Assembly: GCF_003334815.1 (NCBI RefSeq)
Contig: NZ_QOWO01000010.1
Reading direction: 5' to 3' (one strand)
DNA: 64,000 bases
Source: Escherichia coli
GTDB lineage: Bacteria > Pseudomonadota > Gammaproteobacteria > Enterobacterales > Enterobacteriaceae
Shown piece after piece: positions 13,265-29,026 of the stretch. The notes under the pieces were generated by a model. The model did not search any database. It was not told the origin of the DNA and saw only the letters and a program-made list of their open reading frames with translations. The translations under genes and the position numbers were made by a program. Positions within the stretch are counted from its first letter, which is position 1. Every line of letters starts with the position of its first letter.

Positions 13265-14119
13265 ATGGGAAATGGATGGCATGAGTGGCCACTGGTTATC
13301 TTTACCGTATTGGGTCAATGCGTAGTAGGCGCGCTGATTGTTAGCGGAATTGGCTGGTTCGCCGCCAAAAATGACGCAGACCGTCAGCGTATTGTCCGTG
13401 GCATGTTTTTCCTCTGGCTGTTGATGGGCGTCGGGTTTATTGCCTCTGTCATGCACCTGGGATCGCCACTGCGGGCGTTTAACTCGCTGAATCGAATCGG
13501 AGCTTCTGGTCTGAGTAACGAGATTGCTGCCGGTTCCATATTTTTTGCCGTTGGCGGATTATGGTGGCTGGTGGCAGTCATCGGTAAAATGCCGCAAGCG
13601 TTGGGGAAACTCTGGTTACTTTTCAGCATGGCGCTCGGCGTCATTTTCGTCTGGATGATGACCTGCGTGTATCAAATCGACACCGTGCCAACCTGGCATA
13701 ACGGTTACACTACGCTGGCTTTCTTCCTGACGGTATTGTTGAGCGGTCCAATACTTGCTGCCGCAATTCTGCGGGCAGCTCGCGTTACATTTAATACCAC
13801 ACCATTTGCCATCATTAGCGTTCTGGCGCTGATCGCTTGTGCCGGGGTGATTGTGCTGCAAGGTTTGTCTCTGGCGTCTATTCACTCATCCGTGCAACAA
13901 GCCAGCGCACTGGTACCAGATTACGCCTCCTTACAGGTCTGGCGTGTGGTATTGTTATGCGCAGGTCTTGGATGCTGGCTTTGCCCGCTCATTCGTCGCC
14001 GTGAACCTCACGTTGCCGGACTTATTCTGGGGCTAATCCTCATACTTGGCGGTGAGATGATCGGGCGTGTGCTCTTTTATGGCCTGCACATGACAGTAGG
14101 AATGGCTATTGCAGGTTAA
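13265..14119 (+). CDS. ynfH: Integral-membrane anchor subunit (DmsC-like)
   Basis: The ORF-track ORF 13025..14119 overlaps ynfG in another frame. The in-frame ATG at 13265 (MGNGWHEWPLV) gives a 284-aa polytopic membrane protein immediately after the ynfG stop. Confidence 0.85.
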   Translation: MGNGWHEWPLVIFTVLGQCVVGALIVSGIGWFAAKNDADRQRIVRGMFFLWLLMGVGFIASVMHLGSPLRAFNSLNRIGASGLSNEIAAGSIFFAVGGLWWLVAVIGKMPQALGKLWLLFSMALGVIFVWMMTCVYQIDTVPTWHNGYTTLAFFLTVLLSGPILAAAILRAARVTFNTTPFAIISVLALIACAGVIVLQGLSLASIHSSVQQASALVPDYASLQVWRVVLLCAGLGCWLCPLIRRREPHVAGLILGLILILGGEMIGRVLFYGLHMTVGMAIAG

Positions 14120-23156: not shown

Positions 23157-23567
23157 TGTCCTTCTCCTGCAAGAGAATTATTTTAATTTTCGCTTAATTC
23201 AGCGAAACCAAAGTAAAGTGGTCAAGCCCCGCGCATAGCGCAAGCTTTGGCAGAAGAAAGGACTAAAGCGCGTTGCGCCAGTGCTGCTCACCTACGAGCA
23301 AGATAGTGGATGAGGTACGAAGATGGGTAAATGTAGAAAATAACGTCCTGAACAAATTGTCCATAATATTACAATTATCCGCAGTGTTGCTTCTCGTCAT
23401 CGCGGATGATAATTGTCCTCGGTAGTTGAACACGCCTGATTTGTATCATAGCTTAAGAATTAACTCAAAATATTTTCACTTCTTTACCTGAGCGGTTTGA
23501 TTTTCGTTATGATGACGGAGCGAAAAAGACATTATTATTAGCAAAGGAAGAAAAAACGGGGACAAGC

Positions 23568-26025: not shown

Positions 26026-27621
<1,596 letters not shown>

Positions 27622-28081
27622 TCATGTACGAGCTAAATGTTACTCCGTTAAAATAAATTAGTAACAAACGCCCTATAACGTACTGAAAATTATGCCTGTG
27701 ATCTAGCGCCAAAAATCAGTATTTCGGCGTGAACTCGCAAAATATTAACGATTCAGCCGTGATAGTGGGATAAACACCTTAGAACGCCGGATAAAGACTG
27801 ATAATTGTCTTCGACGGTCGGGTAAAACGAGACATCGCCCCGGCACGAATCACTACTTAACATTAAATTAACTTATACAATTCAGTTGCTTCAGTAGTAA
27901 TGATGCTGATACGGCTGTTTTTTAAGCATAGACGGTCATTTGAGCAGGATTAAAATTGGCTTAAGGAATGTGATATGAAAAATGACGCAGACAGTTACAC
28001 CGTTTAAATGCAATAATCAGCCACGTTTCTCGTTAATAACAATACCAGTACCTGGTTTGCGCAAGGCGAAGGATTATTTTT

Positions 28082-29026
28082 ATGAAGCTTAAGAACACCC
28101 TCCTGGCGTCGGCACTGCTTTCTGCTACGGCATTCTCCGTTAACGCAGCAACAGAACTGACACCGGAGCAAGCGGCAGCGGTTAAACCTTTTGACCGTGT
28201 AGTGGTTACCGGTCGTTTTAATGCTATTGGCGAAGCGGTGAAAGCCGTTTCTCGTCGCGCAGATAAAGAAGGTGCCGCCTCTTTTTATGTTGTCGACACT
28301 TCTGATTTTGGTAACAGCGGTAACTGGCGTGTGGTCGCTGACCTCTATAAAGCCGATGCTGAAAAAGCAGAAGAAACAAGTAATCGCGTAATTAACGGTG
28401 TTGTCGAACTGCCGAAAGATCAGGCTGTTCTGATTGAACCGTTTGACACGGTCACCGTCCAGGGCTTCTATCGTAGCCAGCCAGAAGTCAATGATGCCAT
28501 CACCAAAGCGGCAAAAGCGAAAGGTGCCTACTCTTTCTACATCGTTCGTCAAATCGATGCCAACCAGGGCGGCAACCAGCGTATTACTGCATTCATCTAT
28601 AAAAAAGATGCTAAGAAACGTATCGTCCAGAGCCCGGATGTGATCCCGGCAGATTCCGAAGCAGGACGTGCAGCTCTGGCTGCCGGTGGCGAAGCCGCGA
28701 AAAAAGTTGAGATCCCGGGTGTTGCGACTACCGCATCACCAAGTTCTGAAGTCGGTCGCTTCTTTGAAACCCAGTCATCAAAAGGCGGGCGTTACACCGT
28801 CACGCTCCCGGATGGCACTAAAGTCGAAGAACTGAACAAAGCGACCGCAGCGATGATGGTCCCGTTCGACAGCATCAAATTCTCTGGCAACTACGGCAAC
28901 ATGACCGAAGTCTCCTATCAGGTTGCGAAACGTGCCGCGAAGAAAGGTGCTAAGTATTACCACATCACCCGCCAGTGGCAGGAACGTGGTAATAACCTGA
29001 CCGTCAGCGCAGATCTGTATAAATAA
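28082..29026 (+). CDS. ydgH: Periplasmic protein with three DUF1471 (YdgH/BhsA/McbA-like) repeats
   Basis: 314-aa ORF with a signal peptide (…FSVNA/AT) and three internally repeated ~90-aa domains. RBS AGGA 8 nt upstream. Confidence 0.8.
   Translation: MKLKNTLLASALLSATAFSVNAATELTPEQAAAVKPFDRVVVTGRFNAIGEAVKAVSRRADKEGAASFYVVDTSDFGNSGNWRVVADLYKADAEKAEETSNRVINGVVELPKDQAVLIEPFDTVTVQGFYRSQPEVNDAITKAAKAKGAYSFYIVRQIDANQGGNQRITAFIYKKDAKKRIVQSPDVIPADSEAGRAALAAGGEAAKKVEIPGVATTASPSSEVGRFFETQSSKGGRYTVTLPDGTKVEELNKATAAMMVPFDSIKFSGNYGNMTEVSYQVAKRAAKKGAKYYHITRQWQERGNNLTVSADLYK

Follow-up and report, generated by a model that had tools for sequence, protein, structure and literature searches.

The ten-codon open reading frame (ORF) located upstream of ydgH in Escherichia coli is probably incidental, a by-product of promoter sequence and not a selected coding sequence or regulatory upstream ORF (uORF); we put the probability of this reading at about 80%. 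The ORF reads ATG AAA AAT GAC GCA GAC AGT TAC ACC GTT TAA (MKNDADSYTV) and occupies positions 27975-28007 on the plus strand of the window, i.e. the whole stretch of 64,000 nucleotides of E. coli DNA analysed here. Its coordinates, the published positions of the transcription start sites (TSSs) and the pattern of conservation show that it coincides exactly with positions -50 to -18 of P1, the main exponential-phase promoter of ydgH. Since it lies upstream of the TSS at 28025, it is promoter DNA and is missing from the P1 mRNA.

In the mechanism that we propose, the bases of the ORF are the upstream half of P1: an A-tract, the spacer and, between them, an invariant octamer CGCAGACA that includes a -35-like hexamer. 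The stop codon TAA abuts the extended -10 element TGCAATAAT, the exponential-phase ydgH mRNA begins downstream, at 28025, and the in-frame appearance of the ORF would come solely from a -35/-10 spacing that is intolerant of indels. Escherichia has in addition gained a younger upstream promoter, P2, so that a leader of 119 nt opens with AAGGA-N7-AUG. Loading of ribosomes on the ORF is possible in this P2 isoform, and we infer that such translation has no selected function for ydgH. The initial annotation had proposed either a leader peptide or regulatory uORF, or a chance ORF; the latter is now favoured by the P1 promoter DNA and by the promoter-type conservation, whereas the uORF reading survives by way of the P2 isoform. 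A false-positive small-gene candidate is thereby removed, with the caution that an ORF between a conserved -35 and a conserved -10 can seem conserved in frame across genera. The analysis also yields an integrated ydgH control region, comprising three tandem condition-dependent TSSs, a divergent antisense TSS, an invariant -35 block and a near-invariant 5' untranslated region (UTR). The features of the region are as follows.

27560, minus strand: annotated start of pntA.
27929-27963, plus strand: P2 promoter, TAGACG, 16-nt spacer, TAAAAT (consensus scan and Cho et al. 2014).
A27963, plus strand: P2 TSS, NC_000913.2 position 1676332, 62 reads, stationary phase, glutamine and heat shock, 12 nt before the AUG of the ORF (PMC3923258).
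27963-27967, plus strand: Shine-Dalgarno (SD)-like AAGGA, the first base of which doubles as the start of the P2 transcript.
27977-27994, plus strand: conserved upstream block of P1, GAAAAATGACGCAGACAG, mostly 1.0 in the 81-locus alignment (64 haplotypes).
G27987, plus strand: P3 TSS (minor), NC_000913.2 position 1676356, 17 reads, stationary phase, inside the ORF after the AUG (PMC3923258).
28009-28017, plus strand: extended -10 of P1, TGCAATAAT, TG at 28009-28010, TSS 8 nt downstream.
G28025, plus strand: P1 TSS, 76 reads, exponential phase, 18 nt downstream of the ORF stop.
28025-28081, plus strand: ydgH 5' UTR, 57 nt, with a hairpin ACCAGTACCTGGT at 28044-28056, a palindrome TTGCGCAA at 28057-28064 and the SD AAGGA at 28069-28073.
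28029, minus strand: TSS, position 1676398, 44 reads, stationary phase and heat shock, assigned to pntAB (Cho et al. 2014, PMC3923258).
28082-29026, plus strand: ydgH coding sequence (CDS), encoding a DUF1471 periplasmic protein, followed downstream by ydgI.

The initial description of the site holds, apart from one distance. The ORF is present on the same strand as ydgH, and AGGA (27964-27967) does precede its ATG by 7 nt, the intervening bases being ATGTGAT. The intergenic region, given as AT-rich and about 520 bp long, measures 521 bp between pntA and ydgH, with 39.7% GC versus 50.1% in the whole window. The ORF does lie upstream of ydgH, at a distance given as 75 bp that has to be corrected to 74 nt between the stop and the ydgH ATG (28082). 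The frequency of such ORFs was evaluated with 2000 dinucleotide-preserving shuffles of the spacer, counting ATG ORFs of at least 10 codons preceded at 4-10 nt by an SD-like tetramer. At least one comparable ORF occurred in 35% of the shuffles, with a mean of 0.44 versus the one observed; the candidate is within chance expectation for this spacer.

No feature is annotated in the pntA-ydgH spacer of the MG1655 RefSeq entry, nor at the ORF site among the matches listed from 5424 complete E. coli genomes, and an Rfam scan of positions 27400-28300 at E <= 10 returned sub-threshold noise alone, with nothing near a gathering score. The same window contains an annotated small ORF upstream of mdtJI, mdtU (b4777; 23263-23364, minus strand), which we take to be a regulatory ORF for mdtJI. 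As mdtU is annotated in MG1655, the annotation of this strain does record validated small upstream ORFs. A second ATG ORF, of 36 codons and in another frame (MTQTVTPFKCNNQPRFSLITIPVPGLRKAKDYFYEA, 27982-28092, plus strand), begins within the ten-codon ORF and extends 10 nt into ydgH. It lacks an SD, its start lies upstream of the P1 TSS, and UTR indels would disrupt its frame in other genera.

The exponential-phase TSS of ydgH was mapped to position 1676394 of NC_000913.2, with 76 reads and a 57-nt 5' UTR, and the string printed for its positions -50 to +1 is ATGAAAAATGACGCAGACAGTTACACCGTTTAAATGCAATAATCAGCCACG, i.e. ATGAAAAATGACGC...CAGCCACG (Kim et al. 2012, PMC3415461). This string matches window positions 27975-28025 exactly. 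The E. coli TSS positions used here are those of published high-throughput 5'-RACE tables, the rows of which match the window exactly; the tables give one read count per TSS and label P1 as exponential phase only. P1 appears in both published datasets, although the exponential-phase data of Cho et al. 2014 come from the Kim et al. study. A ydgH reporter employed in work on SdsR in Salmonella begins at a mapped TSS, at -58, within 1 nt of that of E. coli.

A consensus scan pointed independently to the same promoter, with CAGACA at 27988-27993 (4/6 matches), an 18-nt spacer and a TG-extended AATAAT at 28012-28017. The upstream block GAAAAATGACGCAGACAG consists of an A-tract at -47 to -43, resembling an UP element, and of CGCAGACA at -39 to -32, which includes the -35-like CAGACA. 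The ChIP regions RNAP_785, SigD_679 and SigS_384 extend over 1675770-1676570, and P1, P2 and P3 are all assigned to sigma70/sigmaS (Cho et al. 2014, PMC3923258). All the features of a sigma70-type extended -10 promoter that we tested are found at P1, namely a mapped TSS, TGn, a -35-like hexamer, conserved elements with a variable spacer, and occupancy. The region resembles the tandem sigma70/sigmaS promoters in the maps of Kim et al. 2012 and Cho et al. 2014: the TSSs lie 7-8 nt downstream of the -10 hexamers, TGn, the -35-like hexamer at 18 nt and the A-tract at -47 to -43 are present, RNAP, sigma70 and sigmaS occupy the region, and the choice of TSS depends on the condition, P1 being used in exponential phase and P2 and P3 under stress.

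For the comparison with relatives, 80 ydgH loci were fetched from Enterobacteriaceae genomes and the 125 nt that precede the ydgH start were aligned, with 81 loci in the alignment; conservation was computed per position over the 64 distinct haplotypes. Relative to the P1 TSS, positions -47 to -42 (AAAAAT) are invariant or nearly so, except for 0.91 at -43, and CGCAGACA (-39 to -32) is 100% invariant over the 64 haplotypes. The spacer is free to vary at -29 to -22 (0.34-0.72), and positions -21 to -7 (TTAAATGCAATAATC) are mostly conserved. The TAA of the ORF is part of a conserved TTTAAATG that abuts the extended -10. Variation in the nine bases of the latter is practically confined to -13 (28012, the first base of the hexamer; 0.69), where A or C is found, and the rest of -17 to -7 is likewise invariant or almost so. 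Apart from -13, scores are 0.98-1.0 in the -10, the TG and the -39 to -32 block.

Read in codons, the ORF has a mean conservation of 0.77, 0.78 and 0.87 at positions 1, 2 and 3, respectively. This is the reverse of the normal coding pattern, which codons 2-40 of ydgH do display at the same loci (0.90, 0.97 and 0.63). The first and second positions of codon 4 are the most variable and adjoin an invariant third position. Judging by the alignment, the conservation of the ORF region is the signature of a promoter and not of a coding sequence, and no coding-type conservation of the ORF was found.

Conservation of the reading frame in other Enterobacteriaceae, which had been suggested as a check on the ORF, gave a mixed result. 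On the one hand, no indel breaks the frame and the ten-codon length is retained in 58 of the 81 loci, because the fixed spacing between the -35 and -10 of P1 forbids indels. On the other hand, 19 of the 81 loci have lost the start codon: the codon aligned with the ATG is ATG in 11, GTG in 47 and TTG in 4, the remainder showing GCA, CTG, GTT, GTA, GAG, GCG, CCT or ATC. An SD-like motif beside a start codon is absent outside Escherichia (six sequences, all of that genus), and most genera lack either the start codon or the SD. The deduced peptides have only xKNxAD(S) in common, the remainder varying freely, and this shared part is what the invariant DNA block gives when translated.

The complete invariance of the octamer CGCAGACA is more than a -35 hexamer with 4/6 matches beside an extended -10 seems to need, and it is here that ydgH departs from the tandem sigma70/sigmaS promoters, its -35 block being far more conserved than the usual weak -35. 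The invariant block GAAAAATnnCGCAGACAG might be the operator of a transcription factor, in addition to an UP-like tract and a -35, in which case the ORF would still be incidental. That ydgH has no known regulator leaves room for such a factor, and a semi-conserved GCAC found some 11 nt upstream of the block in many non-Escherichia genera would be in keeping with it. However, the block matches no known motif, a CRP-like half-site would centre near -43.5 with a second half that is poor by inspection, and the sole other close copy in the 64-kb window is located inside the ynfH coding sequence. We regard an operator as possible but doubtful.

Several observations concern the same block and its surroundings. 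A CRP class II site over GTGA-N6-ACGCA, centred near -43.5 and weak in its second half, was considered and dropped on inspection. The copy in ynfH is an exact 15-nt match, AAAAATGACGCAGAC, at 13367-13381 on the plus strand, its in-frame translation there being KNDAD; chance alone would produce some 1e-4 matches of this kind over the two strands of 64 kb, the flanking sequences are unrelated, and the match is possibly a coincidence. The semi-conserved GCAC lies about 11 nt upstream of GAAAAAT in 67-75% of the haplotypes (loci L010-L074), often as (G)CAC-N5-GTG, and is aligned to window positions 27965-27969, where Escherichia has AAGGAAT. Together with the AAA that follows upstream of P1, it may resemble part of a MarA/SoxS/Rob box. 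The candidate marbox-like GCAC-N8-AAA precedes P1 in non-Escherichia genera only, being absent from Escherichia, and was dropped. The gene itself belongs to an uncharacterised iModulon without a known regulator, and it influences the susceptibility to cephalosporins and detergents.

If the ORF is a by-product of P1, it is still carried by one ydgH transcript. P2 and P3 were placed in the window by exact string match. In NC_000913.3 coordinates, the ORF spans 1678320-1678352, with P2 at 1678308, P3 at 1678332 and P1 at 1678370; its AUG falls in the -10 of P3. With respect to the ydgH leader, the ORF is outside the P1 mRNA, inside the P2 isoform and truncated in transcripts from P3, which begin at 27987. 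The P2 mRNA opens with AAGGAAUGUGAUAUG, so that the SD and the complete ORF stand at the very beginning of its 119-nt leader. The survey that reported P2 added three conditions to exponential phase, for four in all, and P2 is not reported in exponential phase; for b1604, its table comparing the wild type with an rpoS deletion gives an approximately 4-fold difference, to which we assign no direction as the column order is not given (Cho et al. 2014, PMC3923258). The compendium of Tjaden 2023 contains sporadic assembled fragments on the plus strand upstream of P1, e.g. 1678220-1678369, for which the expression cells are nearly all empty among the rows listed, so that it is uninformative here.

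The string MKNDADSYTV has no match in the searchable literature, and the main text of two initiation-profiling preprints does not mention the ORF locus. Initiation profiling by Ribo-RET or Onc112 reportedly used exponentially growing cultures. As P2 is not among the TSSs reported for that phase, the silence of these preprints is uninformative.

The P2 transcript is the basis of an alternative in which the ORF is an Escherichia-specific regulatory mini-ORF: a ribosome bound to AAGGA-N7-AUG of the P2 mRNA would translate the ten codons and thereby tune ydgH under stress. An SD with good spacing, an AUG and A-rich early codons do stand on a real, condition-specific mRNA, the read count of P2 is comparable to that of P1 (62 versus 76), the first 50 nt are predicted to be unstructured, and AAGGAA and the ATG are retained in most Escherichia lineages. 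However, the ORF lacks a coding signature and is not conserved beyond the genus, its SD varies or is lost among E. coli strains, its stop lies 74 nt from the ydgH AUG, and the predicted fold of the leader is no better than that of shuffled sequences and does not involve the ydgH ribosome-binding region. On balance, we consider a regulatory mini-ORF unlikely. The routes by which it might act, for example protection of the 5' end from decay or opening of a pairing predicted between the 5' end and 28022-28030, are likewise improbable, although this AGGAAUGUG/CACGUUUCU pairing in the minimum free energy (MFE) structure could in principle regulate ribosome access.

The variation within the genus bears directly on the SD. 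In a comparison of seven Escherichia lineages, the segment 27951-27974, with the P2 -10, the SD and the spacer, has 10 variable columns out of 24, versus 1 out of 33 for the ORF and 1 out of 74 for 28008-28081. Strong conservation therefore sets in at the upstream limit of P1. Both the P2 -10 TAAAAT and AAGGAA are confined to Escherichia, the sequence of Salmonella and Citrobacter being unrelated there; AAGGAA is retained in six of the seven lineages, with variable flanks.

Within the species, haplotypes were counted over 27945-28012 in 5424 complete E. coli genomes. The SD is intact in the haplotype of the window (3803 genomes) and in the UTI89-type haplotype (1040 genomes), and is weakened from AAGGAA to AAAGAA in at least 236 of the 5424. 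Strain E69 has AAGAAG in place of the SD, and strain JNE170426 carries a 14-bp deletion of TGGCTTAAGGAATG, aligned to 27957-27970, by which the P2 start and the SD are lost and P1 is left intact. From the ATG onwards the DNA is unchanged or nearly so in all the sequences examined. Natural SD variants next to unchanged downstream DNA indicate that wild strains can do without the SD but not without the promoter. The AAAGAA strains and the JNE170426 deletion constitute natural mutants for any role of the ORF.

RNA folding was used to look for a coupling of the ORF to the ydgH ribosome-binding site, and none was found. Folded by itself, the 5'-terminal 50-nt segment of the P2 RNA is predicted to be essentially unstructured, and in the MFE structure of the full leader the 5' AGGAAUGUG pairs with CACGUUUCU at 28022-28030. 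Compared with shuffled sequences, the long leader has no excess stability (z = 0.47), and the predicted fold of the region comprising the SD and AUG of ydgH is identical in the long and short isoforms. The consensus scan revealed no terminator-like site on the plus strand of the spacer. Direct translational coupling is not expected, given the 74-nt gap between the ORF stop and the ydgH AUG. In these predicted folds we see no structural route from translation of the ORF to initiation at ydgH, and neither a structural nor a positional link between the ORF and ydgH expression was found.

Like the regulatory uORFs and leader peptides mdtU, trpL, tnaC, speFL and mgtL, the candidate is a short SD-bearing ORF on the same strand as the gene downstream and is present on at least one mapped transcript, that of P2. 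Unlike them, it is absent from the main ydgH transcript, its peptide and frame are not conserved as coding sequence, and it has no sensor codons, attenuator, terminator or structure sequestering a ribosome-binding site. With the pervasive non-functional short ORFs described in the preprint of Stringer et al. 2021 it shares a very short length, a restriction to the species, the lack of purifying selection and possible translation from a fortuitous SD and AUG on an expressed RNA; it differs from them in that it is missing from the candidate lists that could be consulted and would be expressed from the stress isoform alone.

In a related proposal, P2 is a stress promoter that evolved recently in Escherichia and yields the dominant ydgH mRNA of stationary phase and heat shock; an SD and ORF that arose de novo at the extreme 5' end of this mRNA would, through translation or mere binding of the 30S subunit, modulate the stability or output of the isoform. 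The 5' UTR of ompA in E. coli and the STAB-SD of Bacillus are 5'-proximal ribosome-binding stabilisers. By analogy, the SD within the first few nucleotides of the P2 mRNA could protect its 5' end, but, unlike in these systems, the ydgH P2 SD is dispensable in natural E. coli variants. We consider this proposal quite unlikely. If it were true, it would add to SdsR a lineage-specific post-transcriptional layer acting on an envelope protein that affects beta-lactam susceptibility, and a small ORF acting on the stress isoform would be a minor case of a uORF that arose de novo within one genus.

An independently acting functional peptide of ten residues is extremely unlikely: an SD, an AUG and a P2 transcript exist and nothing more, whereas the residues beyond KNxAD vary freely, the conserved ones are dictated by promoter bases that are invariant even at third codon positions, the start codon or SD is missing in most genera, and the literature that could be searched does not contain the string.

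Downstream of the ORF, the ydgH 5' UTR is almost invariant at 28044-28081 over the 81 Enterobacteriaceae loci. In the hairpin ACCAGTACCTGGT the ACCA and TGGT arms are retained and the loop is variable, with no compensatory changes. SdsR represses ydgH via the 5' UTR in Salmonella. From sequence comparison, the strong conservation of this UTR may reflect an RNA element, an sRNA site or a DNA operator, and we keep all three as candidate causes.

The promoter of the minus-strand TSS at 28029 lies within the conserved ydgH 5' UTR, and transcription from it proceeds towards pntA, antisense to P1, P3, the ORF and P2 in turn. It would be either a pntA leader of about 469 nt or an antisense or interference RNA for ydgH. 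Four minus-strand TSSs in all, at 28029, 27858, 27649 and 27629, are assigned to pntAB (Cho et al. 2014, PMC3923258).

A sigmaE promoter has been proposed for ydgH in the literature, and a published gSELEX peak of the sigmaE holoenzyme lies at about 27885. A conserved sigmaE-like AACTT-N16-TCAGT (similar to GGAACTT-N16-TCnnA) is present at 27870-27895 on the plus strand. No plus-strand TSS is reported near 27902 in the four conditions, heat shock included, and the listed row for this RNAP-binding region has no sigmaE entry, the sigmaE sites there being taken from a public database (PMC3923258). A literature search for ydgH together with sigmaE returned nothing further. A long ydgH leader driven by sigmaE was rejected, as no plus-strand TSS is reported and the conserved block matches the minus-strand pntA TSS. 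This block, TTAACATTAAATTAACTTATACAATTCAG, at 27857-27885, is conserved in Escherichia, Salmonella and Citrobacter and coincides with the TSS at 27858. A further segment in the middle of the spacer, CTGATAATTGTCTTC / GATAATTCGCT, at 27797-27811, is conserved across the same three genera. It contains a GATAAT hexamer, which is presumably like those found in Fur boxes.
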